From: Parcubacteria group bacterium GW2011_GWA2_49_9
GTDB lineage: Bacteria; Patescibacteriota; Minisyncoccia; Phycocordibacterales; UBA10002
Length of the DNA stretch: 49,232 bases
Assembly: GCA_001004005.1 (NCBI GenBank)
Contig: LCQF01000006.1
Coordinates: 1-49,232, forward strand
Direction: 5' to 3'
Shown here: positions 1,104-49,118 of the stretch, in pieces
Layout of the letters: each line of letters begins with the position of its first letter
Position numbering within the stretch: position 1 is the stretch's first letter
Notes under the pieces: generated by a model
Databases searched by the model: none
What the model saw: only the letters and a program-made list of their open reading frames with translations
Told to the model about the DNA's origin: nothing
Translations under genes and position numbers: made by a program

Positions 1104-1253
1104 GTAACTCTCCACACCTGTCGAAGAATGTCTTAATTCCTCCTTTTCTAAAGGAGGTGCCCGAGTCTTCGAGGGCGGGGGATTTAGAAAATCCCTTCTG
1201 CATAAGAATGCAGTGCTCCCTTTAGGAAAGGGAGAATAAGAGTGGAGAGGTAC
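1104..1253. mobile_element. MITE-like palindromic element, intergenic full-length copy (~150 bp) with terminal inverted repeats
   Basis: Left end 'gtaactctccac' matches the reverse complement of the right end 'gtggagaggtac' at 11/12. The interior has hairpin modules 'cctccttttctaaaggagg', 'ctgcataagaatgcag' and 'ctccctttaggaaagggag'. The module order parallels the element at 34156-34301. Confidence 0.7.
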
Positions 1254-33074: not shown

Positions 33075-34115
33075 ATGACCAATCAATATACACATAAGTG
33101 CGTGTTCGTCACCGGAGGCACGGGCTCGATTGGCTGGCAAATCGTGCTTGAAGCGCTCCGGCACCGCCCAAAGGAGGTTGTCGTCTACAGCCGCGATGAA
33201 ACGGCGCAGTTCGAGCGCAAGTGGGAACTCCCGTCGGACGCGGCGGTCCGTTTTGTCATCGGCGATATCCGCGACAAAGAGCGTCTGCATGAGGCGATGC
33301 GCGGCAGCCACATCGTGTTCCATGCTGCGGCGCTCAAGCACGTGCCGATATGCGAGAGCAACCCTTCCGAGGCGGTGAAGACCAATGTTGTCGGTACGCA
33401 GAACGTGATTGATTGCGCCCTTGAACACAATGTGGAAAAAGTGATCGGCATTTCCACCGATAAAGCCGCGAACGCCAGCAACGTGCTCGGCAGCACCAAG
33501 TTCCTTGCCGAAAAACTTATGCGGGCTACGAATTTGCAGACAGGCGACCGGCAGACTAAATTCTGTTTCGTGCGGTTCGGTAATGTGCTGGGCAGCCGTG
33601 GCTCGGTGGTGCCGCTTTTTGTCGCGCAGGCGAAAGCCGGCGGTCCTCTTACGATTACCGATCCCGCGATGACGCGTTTTTTCATGACCCTTCCGCAGGC
33701 GGTAACGCTTATTTTCAAGGCTGCACAGCTTGTACGCAACCGCGAGATTTTCATCTTGAAAATGCCGACAGCCCGAATGGGGGATCTCGCGCAAGCGGTC
33801 ATTTCGCTTGTCGTTCCGTTGGGAACGAAAAGAAAGAATATCGCGATACGTGTTATCGGCATCCGGGAGGGGGAACGCACTCACGAGGTAATGCTTTCGT
33901 ATGAGGAATCTCGGGTCGCCCTTGAAACGGACGATATGTTCATTCTTTTGCCCGATTCTCATTCGTCTTCGGAACAGGGGTGGAAACAGTCCTATCCGTC
34001 TATGCGTCCGGCCCGCATCGGTGCGTATGAATCGCAAAAAGAGAAGACTCTTTCAGTTGCCGATCTCAAGAAGATGTTGGAACAGGATAACGTACTACGC
34101 CATGCAGACCTGTAA
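33075..34115 (+). CDS. UDP-N-acetylglucosamine 4,6-dehydratase, PseB/FlaA1/CapD family
   Basis: 'VFVTGGTGSIG', 'VYSRDE..Q', 'FVIGDIRDKERL', 'VFHAAALKHVP.CE.NP.EAVKTNV.GT.NVI', 'STDKAANA.NV.G.TK', 'VRFGNVLGSRGSVVPLF', 'ITDP.MTRFFM'. Confidence 0.9.
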   Translation: MTNQYTHKCVFVTGGTGSIGWQIVLEALRHRPKEVVVYSRDETAQFERKWELPSDAAVRFVIGDIRDKERLHEAMRGSHIVFHAAALKHVPICESNPSEAVKTNVVGTQNVIDCALEHNVEKVIGISTDKAANASNVLGSTKFLAEKLMRATNLQTGDRQTKFCFVRFGNVLGSRGSVVPLFVAQAKAGGPLTITDPAMTRFFMTLPQAVTLIFKAAQLVRNREIFILKMPTARMGDLAQAVISLVVPLGTKRKNIAIRVIGIREGERTHEVMLSYEESRVALETDDMFILLPDSHSSSEQGWKQSYPSMRPARIGAYESQKEKTLSVADLKKMLEQDNVLRHADL

Positions 34116-34155
34116 GATGTGCGATTCACCACAAAGAGCATACTCGTTCTCGGTA

Positions 34156-34301
34156 GTAACTCCTCACGCTCTTAACATCCCCCTTATTAAAGGGGGTGGA
34201 CGCATTCTTATGCGCCGGGGGATGTTACCGAACACCCCTCCTGCCGAAGACGGCAGTGCTCCCCTTGCTTAGGGGAGATACAGACGAGTGTGAGGGGTTA
34301 C
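34156..34301. mobile_element. MITE-like palindromic element, intergenic full-length copy (~146 bp) with 16-bp terminal inverted repeats
   Basis: 'gtaactcctcacgctc' (34156-34171) matches the reverse complement of 'gagtgtgaggggttac' (34286-34301) at 14/16. Internal hairpins are 'cccccttattaaaggggg', 'gcgcattcttatgcgc', 'ctgccgaagacggcag' and 'ctccccttgcttaggggag'. Confidence 0.75.
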
Positions 34302-34380
34302 TCTCGATAGAGTGGACACTTTGGCTACTTTGTACTATTTCATTAAACAATAGCGCGGCTCATAACGAGCACACTGTAAA

Positions 34381-35151
34381 ATGACTCGAGAAAAACTGCT
34401 TGCAAACTTAGGGGAACACATGCGGGAGCTCTATGTTACCGGAAAGTATTATGTATCGGTACCGCCGATTCCCGACAAGAACTTTGAAGAGGGGTATTGG
34501 CACACGATTATAGACCCCGACGGAAAGAAGCGCGACCGCCTTGCCGAGAAGGACCAATGTCTTGCCGATATAGACTATGTGTTTGAGTACCTGAAAACCG
34601 TGAAGCACGGTTCGGTGCTTGATGTCGGTTGCGGACTCGGTTGGTTTCTCTCCGCGTTACCCAAGGGTTGGAAAAAATACGGACTTGAGGTCTCGAAAGT
34701 AGCCGCCGAGTATGCGGCAAAGTTTGGAGATATTTTCCATGGAACACTCCTTACGAGTCGTTACAAGGAAAATATGTTTGACGTGATTTTTATGCACCAC
34801 GTCATAGAGCATCTCCCAAAGCCGGAAGATGATTTTAAAGTCATCAAACGGATACTAAAGCCTGGCGGACTGCTGATACTGGGTACCCCCGATTTTGATT
34901 CAGGTTGCGCACGTTTGTTCGGAAAAAATTACCGCCTGCTTCATGACGGGACGCATGTCAGCCTATTCTCAAACGACTCTCTTCATCGCTTTTTACGCGA
35001 CAATGGATTCAGTATAGTGCGTGTTGAATATCCGTTCTGGAAGACACGGTTCTTCACCAAAGAAAATCTGATGCGCCTTTTCAACATCCGTGTTATGTCG
35101 CCACCTTTCTACGGCAATTTTATGACTTTCTTCTGCACCAATGAAAAATAA
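34381..35151 (+). CDS. Class I SAM-dependent methyltransferase
   Basis: 'VLDVGCGLGWFL', 'FDVIFMHHVIEHL', 'LKPGGLLILGTPD'. Confidence 0.87.
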   Translation: MTREKLLANLGEHMRELYVTGKYYVSVPPIPDKNFEEGYWHTIIDPDGKKRDRLAEKDQCLADIDYVFEYLKTVKHGSVLDVGCGLGWFLSALPKGWKKYGLEVSKVAAEYAAKFGDIFHGTLLTSRYKENMFDVIFMHHVIEHLPKPEDDFKVIKRILKPGGLLILGTPDFDSGCARLFGKNYRLLHDGTHVSLFSNDSLHRFLRDNGFSIVRVEYPFWKTRFFTKENLMRLFNIRVMSPPFYGNFMTFFCTNEK

Positions 35152-35791: not shown

Positions 35792-36092
35792 AAGCGGTAT
35801 TGACCCCAGAGCAAGCCCTAGTTTTAAGGAACAAGCAATGCTCGTACTTTGTGGGGACAAGCCTTGCGGTAGTAAACCCTTATATCTGCGTCTAGCTCGG
35901 ACGCCATGAAAACTAAGAAGTTTTCGCGGCTTTCCCTACGGGAACGGTACACCTTTCGCCTTTGAAGACAAACGCTCAAGGTCTTGCGGAAGCTCCACGT
36001 CTTCGCTTCCTCACCTCGCTAGCCGAAATAAACAGACATAGAATTCTCTCTCCCGATTCCGGCATACGTGAGAACTCAAGCGTACCAACTCT

Positions 36093-36665: not shown

Positions 36666-36690
36666 ATAGATTAGGACCTACGCAATCGGT

Positions 36691-36766
36691 GTCATTCTCC
36701 TGAAAAGGGGAATCCAGAACCTCATTAAAGGGCTTTATACTGGATTCCCGCCTCCGCGGGAATGAC
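36691..36766. repeat. Inverted pair of 27-nt 'GTCATTC..GGAATCCAG' palindromic units (dRS3-like ATTCCC-N8-GGGAAT type)
   Basis: 'gtcattctcctgaaaaggggaatccag' (36691-36717) and 'ctggattcccgcctccgcgggaatgac' (36740-36766), in opposite orientation and 22 nt apart. Confidence 0.7.
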
Positions 36767-36862
36767 AGAAAAGTGCGAAATGCGTAAGTCCTACAGATGT
36801 TACTTTTTTCTTATAGATGAGTTGTATATACTATAACAATTCTTTATCGTTAAAGTAACACC

Positions 36863-39031: not shown

Positions 39032-39123
39032 TTGATTTACTGTTTGGTCTCGTAATATCTAATCACGTCTGAGACATGATGTCAATGATGGGGCGCACGG
39101 AAAAGTTTGTTATTATTGTGTGT

Positions 39124-39530
39124 ATGGATATAACTCTTAAAACAAAACTAGAAAATATACGGCTGGTCGCCACCGACTTTGACGGCGTGCATACGAACGG
39201 GTGCGTTCATGTTGACGAACACGGCGTTGAAAGCGTCACCTGTAGCCGTAAAGACGGACTGGGCATTGACCTCCTTAAGAAAGCGGGGATAGAGGTGCAT
39301 GTCATCTCTAAAGAGAGAAATCCTGTTGTTGCGGCGCGCTGTATATGGGTGACGACCTCAACGACAAAGCTCCGCTTGAATATGCCGGAGTCGCGATTAC
39401 CGTCGCGGACGGCCATTCCACCCTTTTGTCGTTATGCGACTACGTAACCGAAAGGAGGGGAGGAGACCATGCCATACGGGAAGTAGCGGAACTTATTCTT
39501 GAAGCACAAGGTCACGCGGTCACTTTTTAG
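39124..39530 (+). pseudogene. KdsC-like HAD phosphatase (ulosonate-phosphate phosphatase) split over two frames near 39338-39345
   Basis: Frame A reads 'IRLVATDFDGVHTNG..DEHG.E...CSRKDGLGIDLLKKAGIEVHVISKE.NPVVAAR'. Frame B reads 'YMGDDLNDKAPLEYAGVAITVADGH....CDYVTERRGGDHAIREVAELILEAQG'. About 40-45 aa of the expected linker ('..LGI......DK......') are missing. Confidence 0.75.
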
Positions 39531-41823: not shown

Positions 41824-41864
41824 GACGAGGCTCAACCTCAACCACGACGAGGTTGAGCCTCGTC
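41824..41864. repeat. Perfect 16-bp-stem hairpin at the 3' flank of the RAYT-like gene
   Basis: 'gacgaggctcaacctc-aaccacgac-gaggttgagcctcgtc'. The transposase stop codon lies inside it. Confidence 0.8.
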
Positions 41865-42539
41865 AGCGTATCGGAGCCAGTCAGAAATCTCCCGATTAAA
41901 AGTTGTCTTCTCTGGAAAGTAACCGGGGAACTCTTTTTGGTTGAGAAGTTTAGAAAATTGCCGACTGATGCCGAGATAATCGAAGTAACTTGAATAAGGA
42001 TATTCTGCCAGATATTGTTTCGCTCTCCTCCTGTCTCTAATGCCGTTCTCTTTCCATTTCGGTTCAATGATTTTTACAGGATTAAGGTGAATATATGAAA
42101 ATAGATAGCGCAAATAGGTATCGGTTTTTGCGTGCTTCGCTTTGAACCTTCCTTGAAAAAGCACCCCGTCTCTTTTTCGTCCGATGTTAAAGTACATAGT
42201 ATACGCGGTGGAAAGGCGGTGCATAAAAGCGCTAATGCCGTTTTCCGTGGTTTCGCGTACTAGGAGGTGGAAGTGATTTGGCATAAGACAATATGCGCCG
42301 ATGGCTATGATAGGGGAGTCCATCTTTTCACCGAGCGCGGACTTGATAAGCTCAAGCGAAGTCTCATCTTTCCATGCGGGCAGTCGGTCAAAACGAAAAG
42401 GAGCTTTTCCGTTGCATAGATACAGTAGAAGCATGAACCGTTTTCGGTCCGAATCATTCTCAAAGACAGGTCTTCTCTCAACCCCGCGATTGTAGAGGTG
42501 ATAGTACTCTCCTTCGGCAAATTGTATTTTGCGTGACAT
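41838..42539 (-). mobile_element. IS200/IS605-superfamily Y1 (HUH) transposase, REP-associated tyrosine transposase (RAYT)-like
   Basis: 'YYHLYNRGVERRPVF', the HUH motif in 'YCLMPNHFHLLV', and the catalytic-Tyr region 'RYLFSYIHLNPVK'; 233 aa. Confidence 0.85.
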
Positions 42540-42570
42540 GGTCTGTTAAGCATAACACAACAACAAAATT

Positions 42571-42600
42571 GACGAGGCTCAACCTCGTCACAACCTCGTC
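42571..42600. repeat. Hairpin repeat at the 5' flank of the RAYT-like gene, sharing a 16-mer with 41824-41839
   Basis: 'gacgaggctcaacctcgtcacaacctcgtc'. The first 16 nt are identical and in direct orientation to the other flank; 'gacgagg/cctcgtc' forms a 7-bp stem. Confidence 0.75.
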
Positions 42601-43525: not shown

Positions 43526-44839
43526 ATGCATATTCAGGAACATATTTCTCTTAAAGAACTGACGACGATGAAAATCGGGGGAGACGCCCGCTATTTTTGT
43601 TCTGCCTCGACTGCCGAAGCTTTGGCGGAGGCGGTTTTGTTTGCTCGCGAAAAGAATGTGCCCGTTATTGTGCTTGGTGGAGGTTCCAACACGCTTGTCG
43701 CGAGTGGTGATATTAACGCGCTGGTTCTGAAAATTGAAATCAAGGGGGTTGAGTGGGAATCTCCCTTAGGAAAGTGGAATAGTCGTAGACGAGGAGCACT
43801 CCGACGTGGCGTCGGGGGAGGGTTGTTACAACCCCCGGCGCATCGGAATGCGTCCACCCCCTTTAGTAAGGGGGATTCCGTTCCGGTCGTTGTCGGCGCC
43901 GGTGAGAGCTGGGACGGCTTTGTCGCGCAAGCTGTTGAGAAAGGATTGTGGGGTATTGAAAATCTTTCCGGTATTCCCGGCACCGTAGGCGCCGCCCCTA
44001 TCCAAAATATCGGTGCGTATGGAACGGAAGTCAAAGATACGATTCTGTGGGTAGAGGTGTTTGATATCAAGGCGGGGAAGCTCCGGCGGCTTACAAACGC
44101 CGAATGCCGGTTCGCGTACCGCGACAGTATGTTTAAGCATCAGGTGGAAGGACCGTTCATCGTCTGCCGTGTGGCTTTTCTCCTCCGGAAAGATGGCGTT
44201 CCTAATTTGGAATATAAAGATTTACAAAAATATTTCGGGAATCTTTCCTCCCCTCCTTTCCAAGGTGAGAAGCGAATACTTGGAGCTTCGCAAGACCTTG
44301 AGCGTCCGTCTTCGGACGCGAAAGGTGTACAGCTTCGGTACGAAGGGGATAAGAGGGGTGGTAGTTTTCCTTCTCTCCAGCAAATCCGCAACGCTGTTAT
44401 TGAAATCCGTTCCGGGAAATTCCCCGACCTGCGGGAATTTGGTACCGCCGGTTCATTCTTCAAAAATCCGATTATCTCAAAGAAACAGTTTGATGAATTG
44501 AAAGAGAGATACCCGAATCTTCCAGGATTTCCTCTTAGCCTCTCCCCCTCTTTAGAGGGGGAGATTGAGAGGTGGTGCACCCCACCCACCCTCCCCTCTA
44601 AAGAGGGGAGGAGGGAAGAAAAGGTGAAAATCCCGCTTGCGTGGGTACTCGACAATATTTGCAATCTTAAAGGTTTCAAAAAAGGAAATGTCGCCTTGTT
44701 TGAGAAACAGCCGATTGTGCTCGTGCACAGCGGAGAGGCGACCTCGGAAGAAATTGAATTGTTCGCGAAAGAAATTGCGGACATCGTAAAAGTAAAAACC
44801 GGAATTGAAATTGAGTGGGAGGTGCAAAGAATATTTTAA
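43526..44839 (+). CDS. murB: UDP-N-acetylenolpyruvoylglucosamine reductase, enlarged by three in-frame repeat-derived insertions
   Basis: 'LTTMKIGGDARYF', 'VLGGGSNTLV', 'VVVGAGESWD', 'GIENLSGIPGTVGAAPIQNIGAYG.EV', 'C.FAYRDS.FK', 'GSFFKNP', 'IPLAWVLD..G.KG...G...L.EKQPIVLV'. It is 437 aa versus ~300 aa typical. Confidence 0.9.
   Translation: MHIQEHISLKELTTMKIGGDARYFCSASTAEALAEAVLFAREKNVPVIVLGGGSNTLVASGDINALVLKIEIKGVEWESPLGKWNSRRRGALRRGVGGGLLQPPAHRNASTPFSKGDSVPVVVGAGESWDGFVAQAVEKGLWGIENLSGIPGTVGAAPIQNIGAYGTEVKDTILWVEVFDIKAGKLRRLTNAECRFAYRDSMFKHQVEGPFIVCRVAFLLRKDGVPNLEYKDLQKYFGNLSSPPFQGEKRILGASQDLERPSSDAKGVQLRYEGDKRGGSFPSLQQIRNAVIEIRSGKFPDLREFGTAGSFFKNPIISKKQFDELKERYPNLPGFPLSLSPSLEGEIERWCTPPTLPSKEGRREEKVKIPLAWVLDNICNLKGFKKGNVALFEKQPIVLVHSGEATSEEIELFAKEIADIVKVKTGIEIEWEVQRIF
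43760..43879. repeat. Palindromic-element copy inside murB (reverse orientation relative to 34156-34301), in-frame
   Basis: 43832-43874 matches the reverse complement of 34179-34221 at 40/43. The flanking modules 'tctcccttaggaaag' and 'gcactccgacg..cgtcggggg' are co-linear with the reverse complement of 34222-34275. Confidence 0.8.
44247..44361. repeat. Second hairpin-rich insertion inside murB, in-frame (boundaries approximate)
   Basis: Bounded by the inverted 'cctcccctc' / 'gaggggtgg'. It contains 'gcgtccg-tctt-cggacgc' and encodes 'LSSPPFQGEKRILGASQDLERPSSDAKGVQLRYEGDKRGGSFP', which has no counterpart in the MurB fold as I know it. Confidence 0.55.
44540..44612. repeat. Third insertion inside murB: two G/C-homopolymer hairpins, in-frame (boundaries approximate)
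   Basis: 'ctccccctctttagagggggag' and 'cctcccctctaaagaggggagg', encoding 'LSPSLEGEIERWCTPPTLPSKEGRRE'. Confidence 0.6.
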
Positions 44840-44995: not shown

Positions 44996-45082
44996 ATGGC
45001 AAAGAAGAAACGAAAAGCGACGAAGAAGCGCAAGACGGCGAAGAAAGGCAAGAAGCGCAAGACCGCAAAGCGACGCCGATAA
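44996..45082 (+). CDS. 28-aa lysine/arginine-rich micro-protein (hypothetical)
   Basis: An ATG..TAA ORF 'MAKKKRKATKKRKTAKKGKKRKTAKRRR', followed 3 nt later by a strong terminator hairpin. It was not in the ORF track because it is under 60 aa. Confidence 0.4.
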   Translation: MAKKKRKATKKRKTAKKGKKRKTAKRRR

Positions 45083-45117: not shown

Positions 45118-47071
45118 GTATCCGTGATTGTCACTCGAAAATAAGCAGAGCACGGGTGAAGGGTTAAGGATTAAAGATTAAGGATTTCTATGTTAGTATT
45201 GCCCCATGTTTGATGGATTAAAAAAGCTATTCGGGGACGACACGGTGGCCAAGCTAAAGCCTCTTTTGGGGAACGTAGAGAAAATAAACCGCTTGGAAGA
45301 AGGCCTCAAAGCGCTGCCTAAAGAGGCGCTTAAAGAAAAGACCGCTGAACTGAAAGCCCGATTACAGAAGGGTGAGACGTTGGATGATATCCTACCCGAA
45401 GCGTTCGCGCTCGTGCGCGAATCGTCGCGGCGCACGCTTGGCGAACGGCACTTTGACGTACAACTTCTCGGCGGACAAGTCTTACATAACCGCGGCATCG
45501 CGGAGATGCGTACCGGAGAAGGGAAGACACTTGTCGCGACGCTCCCTTCGTATCTTAACGGGGGTTGTTAATCATGATTCTTCTTTTTTGTATGACCCAC
45601 TGCATAGTTCTAAGTTGGAAGTTGAAAGTTCAGAGTCAGAAAACCTAAAACTTAAAACTGATAACTTAAAACTTGACGAGACAAGGGACACACTTGGCTC
45701 GTTCAAGGTCGTGCATGAATTCCTGCGGCCGTGCACCCGGCGTGAAGCGTACGCCGCGGATATCACGTACGGCACCAACAACGAATTCGGGTTTGATTAC
45801 CTTCGCGACAATCTTGAGTATGACCCTGCGCGGCTCCGTCAGCGCGATTTCAACTATGCGATTGTGGACGAGATTGACTCCATCCTTATTGACGAGGCGC
45901 GAACCCCGCTCATTATTTCCGCCCCCACGGGTGATTCGGAAGATTTATACGCGCGGTTCGCGCAGATTGCGGGAGGCCTTGCGGCGGATACGGATTTTAC
46001 GGTAGACGAAAAACAAAAAGCGATTCAGCTCACGCCCGCGGGTATTGAGAAAGCGGAAAAGGCGCTCGGAATCGGCAATATCTACACCGAGAAAGGCATC
46101 AAGTACGTACACCATCTTGAAACCGCCGTACGGGCGAAAGCGCTCTTCCAACTTGATAAAGAGTACGTGGTGAAGAACGGCGAAATCATTATCGTGGACG
46201 AATTTACCGGCCGTATGATGCCGGGGAGGCGTTGGAGTGAAGGGTTGCATCAGGCGATTGAAGCGAAAGAAGGCGTGAAGGTGCAGAAAGAATCCCGCAC
46301 GTTTGCGTCCATCACGTTCCAGAATTATTTCAGAATGTACAAAAAGCTCGCCGGGATGACGGGTACCGCGAAAACCAGCTCCGAAGAGTTTTACAAAGTG
46401 TATGGACTTGACGTCGTTTCTATCCCGACTAACAAGCCGATTGCCCGTGCTGACCGGAACGACCAGATTTTTCAGACGGAGACGGGGAAGTACAAGGCCA
46501 TCGCGAAGAAGGTCGCGGAACTGAACAAAAAAGGCCAGCCCGTTCTCATCGGCACGGTCTCCATTGAGAAAAACGAAGTGCTTTCCGAGTACCTGCGTAC
46601 GGTCGGCGTCCCTCACGAACTTTTGAATGCCAAAAATCACGAACGGGAAGGAGAAATTATCGCCCAAGCGGGACGGCGTGGAGCGGTGACCGTCGCGACT
46701 AATATGGCTGGCCACGGCGCATTGATAACCAGCTTCGCGGACGCAGCGGACGACAGGGAGACCCCGGCGAAACGCAATTCTTCGTTTCAATGGAAGACAC
46801 ATTGATGCGGGTCTTTGCCGCGGATACTATCAAGAGTGTTATGGGGAAATTCGGTATTCCCGAAGACGAGCCGATTGAAAACAGGATGATTACCCGCTCG
46901 CTTGAATCGGCACAGACGAAAATTGAAGGCTTCAACTTTGATTCGCGCAAGCACGTACTGGAATACGACAACGTGCTCAATCACCAGCGCACCGTTATTT
47001 ATGAACGCCGGCGCAAGATGTTGCTCGGCGGCCCCGAAGCGGTGGATGAGTATCTCACTATGCTCTCGGCA

Positions 47072-47126
47072 GGGGAATCCCCCTTAGAAAAGGGGGTGCC
47101 TCCGTCTTCGGAGGCGGGGGTTGTGA
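47072..47126. repeat. Palindromic-element core inside the secA C-terminal region, in-frame
   Basis: 'cccccttagaaaagggggtg-cctccgtcttcggagg-cgggggttgtga' has the same hairpin1-TG-hairpin2-CGGGGG layout as 1139-1181 and 34179-34221. It encodes 'ESPLEKGVPPSSEAGVV'. Confidence 0.7.
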
Positions 47127-47493
47127 ATTTCGGCAAGCTCGTTGAGCAGAAAAAGCAGCAGCTCGGTGCGGAGTTCTACCCGGCCATTTCGCGCCTTATC
47201 CTCCAGACCATTGACCTCTTCTGGGTGGAGCATCTGGAAGTGATGGATTATTTGCGCGGTTCCGTAAATTTGCGCGCGTATGGCCAGCGCGACCCGCTCG
47301 TGGAATATAAGCGGGAAGGACTCAAACTTTTCAAGGATATGGAAGAGAATATCGTGAATCAGGTACTGCACGTCTTTCCACACGTTGGCGGTGCTCCCAT
47401 ACAGGAACAGGTCAAATTACAGGAGGTACACGAGCAGGCCCAGCTTATCGGCTCGGGCGATGAAGAGTCCGATGCGCAGCATCACGGCAATAT

Positions 47494-47524
47494 CCCCCTT
47501 AACAAAGGGGGTGGCCTGGGGGGG
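47494..47524. repeat. Truncated palindromic-element core inside the secA C-terminal linker, in-frame
   Basis: 'cccccttaacaaagggggtggcctggggggg', encoding 'IPLNKGGGLGGL'. Confidence 0.6.
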
Positions 47525-47683
47525 TTGTCGTCTTCACGTTCGGAACCGAAAAATCCCGACGGTTCGCGCATCGGTCGCAACGACCCCTGCTTCTGCGGAA
47601 GCGGCAAGAAGTATAAGAAGTGCCATGGAGTGTAGAGTCAGCGTTTTTCTTGCCCTCTGTAGAAAGAGGCAAAAACCCTTGTT

Positions 47684-49084: not shown

Positions 49085-49118
49085 GTTATGCTGTTATTCT
49101 TGAGAATAACAGCATAAC
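49085..49118. promoter_or_regulatory. Perfect 15/16-bp hairpin ending immediately before the maf-like start codon
   Basis: 'gttatgctgttattc-ttga-gaataacagcataac' directly abuts the ATG at 49119. Confidence 0.6.

Follow-up and report, generated by a model that had tools for sequence, protein, structure and literature searches.

The window analysed here, a stretch of 49,232 nucleotides from Parcubacteria group bacterium GW2011_GWA2_49_9, carries two short elements, copies A and B, that are old copies of a small non-autonomous transposon, and the finding is a real one. Taken as a whole, the evidence is best explained if A and B and their relatives in other genomes are MITEs of the ISBst12 group of the IS66 family, an assignment to which we give a probability of roughly 0.78. 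The interior of each element is a mirror-image pair of hairpin units with no relic of a transposase gene, and these units form a separate, far more abundant repeat family that is common without inverted ends.

Both copies are intergenic, with co-directional sugar-biosynthesis genes on either side: copy A follows an epimerase gene (52-1059) and precedes a GT2 glycosyltransferase gene (1317-2267), and copy B follows a PseB-like Polysacc_synt_2 gene (33075-34115) and precedes a methyltransferase gene (34381-35151), all four on the plus strand. When the sequence was read again, the positions that an earlier sequence-only reading had given for the two copies, and the matches that it had counted between their ends, proved to be right (Table 1). 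An independent assembly, L076, has copy B with exactly the same sequence. The only open reading frames over the copies are overlapping program-listed ones (for example 33901-34272), and both elements (150 bp and 146 bp) are, like MITEs, short, non-coding and bounded by inverted repeats.

The ends of copy B (34156-34171 against the reverse complement of 34286-34301) agree at 14 of 16 positions, and those of copy A (1104-1115 against the reverse complement of 1242-1253) at 11 of 12, or 14 of 15 if the outer GAA/TTC is counted. The inverted end motif common to A and B is GTAACYCYYCAC, 12-16 bp in length; all four ends begin with GTAAC or GTACC, and the right end of A has one change within the GTAAC core. 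At zero or one mismatch the motif is found at four sites in the whole window, which are the ends of A and B. A window scan with a 16-nt end matrix derived from relatives of the elements likewise places the A and B ends at the top, the sole further candidate being a solo right-end-like site at 45152-45167.

Table 1. Coordinates in the window of the two elements, their ends, flanking duplications and hairpin units, and of related units and inserts elsewhere.
Feature	Position	Strand	Description
MITE copy A	1104-1253	+	150 bp; more decayed than B
A left terminal inverted repeat	1104-1115	+	GTAACTCTCCAC; end-matrix score 23.3
A right terminal inverted repeat	1242-1253	-	reverse complement GTACCTCTCCAC; end-matrix score 9.5
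B duplication, left copy	34148-34155	.	tctcggta
MITE copy B	34156-34301	+	146 bp
B left terminal inverted repeat	34156-34171	+	GTAACTCCTCACGCTC; end-matrix score 19.9
First hairpin unit in B	34179-34239	+ (forward)	H1 34179-34196, H2 34198-34216, H3 34217-34239
Second hairpin unit in B, mirror image	34217-34277	+	shares H3; then H4 34241-34256, H5 34259-34277
B right terminal inverted repeat	34286-34301	-	reverse complement GTAACCCCTCACACTC; end-matrix score 22.3
B duplication, right copy	34302-34309	.	tctcgata; 7/8 identical to left copy
Intergenic bare copy of murB site-2 element type	35937-35988	-	83% complementary over 52 nt to 44289-44340
Second palindromic unit, bare	36690-36767	+	GTCATTC..GGAATCCAG ... 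CTGGATTCC..GGAATGAC
murB site 1	43756-43885	-	unit doublet (H1-H2-H3-H4, decayed H5), no inverted ends, in frame
murB site 2	44241-44367	+	second element type, GTCCG-TCTT-CGGAC hairpin, in frame
murB site 3	44536-44613	+	two inverted CTCCCCCTC-TTTA-GAGGGGGAG hairpins, 78 nt, in frame
secA unit, wing/scaffold region	47074-47122	+	single unit in frame, encodes ESPLEKGVPPSSEAGVV
secA unit, C-terminal linker	47489-47530	+	shortened unit in frame, encodes NIPLNKGGGLGGLS

Copy B is flanked by a target-site duplication of 8 bp that abuts both ends, and at copy A, where the flanks (tcggtgaa and ttcggggg) agree at 3 of 8 positions, no duplication is preserved. The sequence-only reading had tentatively taken short direct repeats near the ends for 5-bp duplications with offset left copies. 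Its repeat at A (ttcgg, 1095-1099 and 1254-1258) is as described, the left tctcg of B is at 34148-34152, one base away from where it had been placed, and the 3-4 nt offset vanishes when the duplication is taken as 8 bp abutting the ends. Among 78 elements an abutting 8-bp duplication is perfect in 18 and matches at 7 of 8 positions in nine (27/78 at 7-8/8), a level never attained in a control in which the flank was shifted by 20 nt; a duplication of fixed length next to the ends is therefore present both at B and in many of its relatives.

Those relatives were recovered by scanning one genome per prokaryotic species with the pattern GTAACYCYYCAC-N(105-135)-GTGRRGRGKTAC, which returned 75 loci with equal ends and spacing from Patescibacteria, Caulobacteraceae, Legionellales and others; the window's own copies are not among the returns. 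Under uniform base composition, about 8-17 matches to this pattern would be expected by chance in the 596 Gb scanned. The matches cluster within MAGs, with about 12 in one proteobacterial MAG and nine in Patescibacteria H51-bin228_1 (JBBTVI01), where three 155-nt copies are identical, and several in Saccharibacteria, Paceibacterota, Kaiserbacteria, Staskawiczbacteria, Caulobacteraceae, Brevundimonas, Hyphomicrobium, Legionellales, Chthonomonadaceae and others. Ca. Paceibacterota WB01no19_43_19 (JAVHQE01) has four 146-nt copies at four loci that differ by 0-2 mismatches; three have their own perfect 8-bp duplication, and the fourth (L072) matches at 6 of 8 positions. An element of Ca. Nomurabacteria (L004) at a non-syntenic locus is 84% identical to copy A and has the perfect duplication aaactcct. 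The 49-kb window holds two copies, compared with 4 to about 12 per genome, some of them identical, in other MAGs.

The clustering within MAGs, the duplications above the control level and the near-identical sets together establish a genuine transposon family that has recently been active in some Patescibacteria, of which the window copies are older, decayed members. The MITE-like, non-autonomous interpretation of the sequence-only reading is thus borne out, and the perfect 8-bp duplications and multi-copy near-identical sets of the relatives lend it further weight. The alphaproteobacterial elements with the same 12-nt ends have longer inverted repeats (GGC-GTAAC...GTTAC-GCC) and lack a duplication directly beside the motif, the true termini being situated further outward, and they may constitute a subfamily that behaves differently.

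GTAA ends and 8-bp direct repeats are the signature of the IS66 family in the ISfinder classification. For comparison we assembled a set of single-ORF genes annotated as 'IS66 family transposase' from plasmids and located the ends of the elements that carry them. The copies measured are an ISBst12-group element of pHTA426 (end GTAACTATTCAGCC, duplication GACGAGTT), ISGst1 of pGS18 (ends GTAACTATTCAGCC and GTAACTATTCACCC, duplication AAAAGAAC), and elements of B. thuringiensis pBMB0231 (end GTAACTACTCAGCT, duplication AATTTATC), Bradyrhizobium p192_1 (end GTAACTGCCCAGGT, duplication TGCATATC) and Azospirillum (end GTATTTGCTCACCT, duplication GCGTTGGG); in all five the 8-bp duplication is perfect. 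Bona fide single-ORF members of the ISBst12 group thus have ends of the form GTAACTnnTCAS plus 8-bp duplications, and ISDge4, another single-ORF member, is described with the ends GTAACTGCTCAGCA and GTGACTACTCAGCA and a direct repeat of 8 bp (PMC12898284).

The window ends GTAACTCCTCACGC, GTAACCCCTCACAC and GTAACTCTCCACAC have GTAACT..TCA(C/G)C in common with this group and match the ends of ISGst1, pBMB0231 and ISDge4 at 10-11 of 14 positions, which is likeness and not identity (the ISGst1 right end GTAACTATTCACCC against GTAACTCCTCACGC is an example). The elements therefore resemble ISBst12-group insertion sequences such as ISBst12, ISGst1, ISDge4 and the pHTA426 copy in their GTAA start, in end similarity that extends beyond GTAA (GTAAC..TCA(C/G)) and in the abutting 8-bp duplication, and it is on these shared GTAAC ends and duplications that we assign A and B as ISBst12-type MITEs. 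They differ in size and content: the insertion sequences are 1.5-1.6 kb long with one DDE transposase, whereas A and B, at 146-150 bp, are too short to code for a protein of their own and have an interior with no sequence in common with them. The element would have been inserted, through staggered cuts 8 bp apart, by a DDE transposase of ISBst12 type that bound its ends in trans and whose gene lies elsewhere or has since been lost.

No such partner was found in the material searched. Searches by tblastn with seven ISBst12-group transposases yielded no ISBst12-like transposase, either in the window or across some 1.5 Mb of retrieved loci, and no transposase with matching ends lies in the window, as the sequence-only reading had noted. 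The 75 genome loci contain no IS-sized end pairs, whether unpaired or long-range. A scan of viral contigs for GTAACCCCTCACNCC gave 51 single matches, with no partner end or duplication, a result compatible with chance. No ISBst12-like transposase or long element with matching ends (window, about 1.5 Mb of retrieved loci, viral-contig matches), and no autonomous insertion sequence sharing the ends (window, genome and metagenome loci, viral-contig matches), was recovered. In the literature searched, no paper gives the exact end motif or joins ISBst12 and MITEs, and a 2024 review of MITEs does not mention IS66.

Among known MITEs, the Correia elements of Neisseria and the enterobacterial ERIC elements are similar in being about 100-150 bp long and bounded by inverted repeats; that they are transcribed along with adjacent genes and form long hairpins is well established (see also PMC10969869). 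Their ends and duplications differ from those of the window elements (Correia duplicates TA), and their interiors, unlike those described here, are not made of independently repeated hairpin units.

Folding of A and B as single-stranded DNA and as RNA, which the sequence-only reading had proposed as a check, gives a terminal stem that closes five hairpins. The z-scores are -7.8 for B and -6.9 for A as DNA, and as RNA, for the two strands, -9.1 and -7.9 (minus strand) for B and -5.5 and -6.3 for A; none of 200 shuffles folds as well. Lying between co-directional genes, both copies would be transcribed together with these and would take up the stem-closed five-hairpin structure in the transcript; any effect on the mRNA is hypothetical. 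Copies A and B share 70% identity, and B shares 72.6% with its own reverse complement. About the central hairpin H3, the end, H1 and H2 on the left are mirrored by H4, H5 and the end on the right, and since the two mirror-image units share H3 the whole element is near-palindromic. The first unit of B reads CCCCCTT-loop-AAGGGGG-TG-variable hairpin-GGGGGAT. This symmetry also accounts for a module that had been described as inverted between the copies, gcataagaatgc at 1200-1211 and gcattcttatgc at 34202-34213: both sequences are where they were said to be, and shuffling is not needed to explain them, because in near-palindromic elements H4 of A is the mirror counterpart, that is the reverse complement, of H2 of B.

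The modules are more separable than the modular organisation noted from the sequence had led one to suspect, and they constitute an independent and abundant family that also occurs without inverted ends. A unit of about 40 nt consists of CCCCCTT-loop-AAGGGGG, TG, a hairpin of variable sequence and GGGGG(A/T)T. Within the window, 43825-43876, in an insert in murB, is 90% identical over 52 nt to 34177-34228 of B in the opposite orientation, and two further copies without inverted ends (47074-47122 and 47489-47530) lie inside a long open reading frame. A scan of metagenomes for the unit gave at least 120 stretches, from samples that include termite gut, lake sediment and groundwater. Among the matches listed, no GTAAC end is found near any of 137 units, and the variable hairpin has a perfect stem of at least 4 bp in 95 of 138 units (15 of 138 when shuffled), with 71 different arm sequences. 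The idea that the units are mostly REPIN-like doublets was rejected, a partner within 120 nt being present for only 19 of 137 among the matches listed.

The relative abundance of the two components is evident in a depth profile over 33800-34700, calculated as word depth of assembler contigs in four soil and groundwater metagenomes. The unique flanks have a depth of about 3x and the bins over the inverted ends 2-6x; the interior reaches 32-4144x with a peak over H4-H5 (1480-4140x for the second unit), and many different sequences adjoin the element interior in the metagenome contigs. The units are thus hugely repeated in the community and the inverted-end shell is rare. The unit family would accordingly be one that spreads without inverted ends and without target duplications. 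A second palindromic unit, of the type at 36690-36767, makes up the interior of GTAAC-ended elements in other Patescibacteria, and among L001-L075 it matches 13 times inside such elements and five times outside them; it is likewise found both bare and in the shell.

Bare units and other palindromic inserts also reside in frame within genes, among them murB. The open reading frame at 43526-44839 encodes a 437-aa MurB in which Pfam recognises FAD_binding_4 split in two stretches and a stretched MurB_C, and comparison with solved MurB structures yields four matching blocks with three query-only segments between them. The same protein with its three inserts is encoded identically in the independent assemblies L076, L077 and L078, so the inserts are not assembly artefacts. 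The closest homologues, which belong to Ca. Taylorbacteria and other Parcubacteria, are between 328 and 477 aa long, and in the alignment the differences in length gather at the same three sites: P0012 (338 aa) has no insert, and P0004 (421 aa), with an almost identical backbone, has all three sites filled. Site 1 is 130 nt long compared with 28 nt in the insert-free allele. The same peptide can occupy different sites, as GASQDLEHSSSDAKGVQPRYEG at site 1 of P0002 and GASQDLERPSSDAKGVQLRYEG at site 2 of the window protein. The first 30 nt of site 3 are identical at 29 of 30 positions to the insert in the gene for P0004 (L208), the host genes being 73% identical; since the insert is better conserved than the gene around it, the inserts are younger than the divergence of their hosts. 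No inverted ends or duplications flank the murB inserts, and with the 16-nt end matrix no degenerate GTAAC ends are detected near the inserts of murB or secA.

An AlphaFold model of the MurB protein, built on the homologue alignment, has a mostly confident core, with pLDDT of 80-95 in most 10-residue blocks. The three inserts (residues 82-115, 241-279 and 343-361) have values below 50, as do the short stretches 52-54 and 151-158. Both of the secA units are in variable regions, and in-frame units occur elsewhere in PFOR, aminopeptidase N (PepN), D-Ala-D-Ala ligase (Ddl), TrpC, an RseP-like protease and RHS proteins. Units are nonetheless depleted in open frames, with 30 of 141 so placed among the matches listed from metagenome loci, against 715 of 1500 random positions. 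The family is evidently able to reside in frame in loops of essential genes, as at the three sites in murB and two in secA in this window.

This behaviour is like that of the Rickettsia palindromic elements (RPEs), hairpin repeats that are both intergenic and in frame in unrelated housekeeping genes, where the protein gains a peptide and keeps its fold (PMC10969869), as the confidently predicted core and low-pLDDT inserts of MurB would also indicate. It is a feature of the bare units and not of the intergenic copies A and B. RPEs are about 100-150 bp and are reported from Rickettsia as the families RPE-1 to RPE-10, and the units are about 40 nt and are found in Patescibacteria and many metagenomic lineages; the two are likened here by behaviour.

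Of the other explanations for the elements, the one with most in its favour, though still an improbable one, is that they are not DDE-type MITEs at all, and are REP/REPIN-type repeats that the window's Y1 (RAYT-like) transposase moves in the form of single-stranded hairpins. A Y1_Tnp gene is present at 41838-42539 (Pfam E = 6e-9) between inverted hairpins, in the classic REP-RAYT-REP layout. The units resemble REP, REPIN and BIME repeats in being short, GC-rich, mosaic hairpins of very high copy number that are sometimes arranged as inverted doublets, make no target duplication when bare and are in some instances inside genes, where REPs are occasionally located too (PMC3733652). However, the Y1 gene is not flanked by the unit repeat: the hairpins on either side of it (GACGAGGCTCAACCTCGTC, with CGTC at the end) bear no sequence relation to the units and are confined to that place. 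The product of the gene scores 44.6 bits against the NCBIfam model for REP-associated tyrosine transposases, below the 80-bit cut-off. The GTAG or CGTC tag that defines the REP superfamilies (PMC3733652) is absent from the units, which are flanked instead by (A/T)TCCCCC and GGGGGWT, and no Y1 homologue is present in the other retrieved unit-bearing loci. Copies A and B have DDE-type inverted ends and a target duplication, and their relatives bounded by such ends make 8-bp duplications, which Y1 transposition does not. Movement by Y1 is consequently not tenable for the inverted-end shell, and its scope is confined to the bare units.

We consider it still less probable that the elements are structured cis-regulatory or small RNAs of sugar-biosynthesis operons, conserved for their fold. 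The predicted fold is very stable (z = -9.1 for B as RNA), both copies sit between co-directional genes, and the hairpin stems differ in sequence with pairing kept. Yet the two strands of B fold almost equally well, Rfam gives no match at the gathering score in the whole window and none at E <= 1 in 34100-34360, and a scan around B predicts no promoter-like or terminator-like sites. Relatives occur in unrelated contexts with target duplications, and units also lie inside coding sequences in either orientation. That the similarity is due to chance, or to faulty assembly of low-complexity palindromes, is hardly credible. The window does have assembly-type defects elsewhere, and some matches to the end pattern are expected by chance, as estimated above; against this stand the identity of copy B in L076, the agreement of three assemblies on the murB inserts, the clustering of scan matches within MAGs and duplications at levels never seen in the control. 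An origin of A and B as ISBst12-type MITEs accordingly remains the preferred reading.

A bolder proposal, which we put forward as speculation and think doubtful as it stands, is that the ~40-nt units are the real actors: a selfish repeat family, distributed over many phyla, that spreads without duplications, colonises loops of essential genes in frame, turns over faster than host genes diverge and rides in unrelated transposon shells. If this were true, the GTAAC-ended MITE would be a vehicle that carries units between genomes, and the second unit family (GTCATTCC..GGAATCCAG), with its own bare and in-shell copies, would point to a general rule and not an accident.

To our knowledge, mobile elements have rarely been documented in Patescibacteria, and the MITE family offers a handle on them. 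It is widespread, a single 12-nt end motif being common to members in lineages as far apart as Patescibacteria and Caulobacteraceae, is unnamed as far as the searched literature shows, and is now assigned to the little-studied ISBst12 branch of IS66. In practical terms, the repeats inflate protein lengths, create spurious open reading frames and break short-read assemblies. The cargo is the more interesting part, with hairpin repeats read in frame as part of murB, secA and other core genes, filled and insert-free murB alleles in near-identical genomes, and inserts that are better conserved than the genes that host them. With it, selfish DNA in protein-coding genes, a phenomenon already described for Rickettsia, is seen also in ultra-small bacteria of groundwater and more widely.

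The conserved SecA coding sequence lacks two segments in the window, one of 104 bp at 45560/45561 and one of 106 bp at 46712/46713. Both segments are found, in highly conserved stretches, in the independent assemblies L076 and L077, where secA is a single 879-aa ORF; as a result of the two losses the window's secA is broken across three frames. A third gap of ~100 bp is evident relative to L077 at 39338-39343, within a Hydrolase_3-like ORF (39076-39447) whose L077 counterpart is an intact 187-aa gene; L076 carries a run of N at the matching place. The split of secA is most likely not biological but a fault introduced when the window's source sequence was assembled or processed.

Several RHS/YD-repeat proteins from termite-gut and other metagenomes (L088, L131, L170, L189, L190 and L194) carry, in frame and in comparable positions, the hairpin unit that also forms the interior of the window's GTAAC-ended elements; there it encodes the peptide SPLLKGGGG..GGL. 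In four of these loci (L088, L170, L189 and L190) it directly follows a conserved YxYDAFGN-type repeat. GTAACCCCTCAC ends are also carried by alphaproteobacterial elements (L001, L005, L009, L012, L057, L065 and others, from Caulobacteraceae and related MAGs), which have no abutting duplication; their inverted repeats reach further outward, with CTGGCGGC immediately outside GTAAC and GCCGCCAG immediately outside GTTAC, and their interiors are based on CTCTCCC-loop-GGGAGAG hairpins. These may be the published Caulobacter CIR repeats, as a candidate match.

Other repeats and a possible remnant are listed in the table. The palindromic unit, which resembles the Neisseria dRS3/NIME ATTCCC-N8-GGGAAT repeats, is common across loci of Patescibacteria, Legionellales and Planctomycetes, and occurs both within GTAAC-ended elements and bare. 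A strong hairpin, CTCCTCCGACATATGTCGGGGGAG, comes after the 28-codon ORF, which is made of imperfect tandem repeats of 18-27 nt. No left end to pair with the solo right-end-like site was found, and the site may be a remnant.

Window coordinates of the secA ORFs, the Y1 gene and the additional repeats
Feature	Position	Strand	Remarks
Palindromic unit	36690-36767		GTCATTCTCC..GGAATCCAG ... CTGGATTCCCGC..GGGAATGACA
IS200-like/REP-associated-type Y1 transposase gene	41838-42539	minus	HUH motif NHFH
28-codon ORF	44996-45082		encodes MAKKKRKATKKRKTAKKGKKRKTAKRRR; between murB and secA
Solo MITE right-end-like sequence	45152-45167		GGGTGAAGGGTTAA; score 15.1 with the 16-nt end matrix
secA ORFs	45206-45571, 45372-46805, 46790-47635
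Perfect palindrome	49085-49118		15-bp stem; GTTATGCTGTTATTC TTGA GAATAACAGCATAAC; close to window end

Two copies of the hairpin GACGAGGCTCAACCTCGTC, which has CGTC at its end, bracket the Y1 gene in inverted orientation to each other (region 41824-42590). In L209 and L210, the syntenic loci of the relatives, the stretch from Wzy_C to murB holds no Y1-type gene. According to Di Nocera et al., CGTC-tagged REPs have no dedicated transposase, so the pairing of the Y1 gene with a CGTC-ending hairpin may merit a look.
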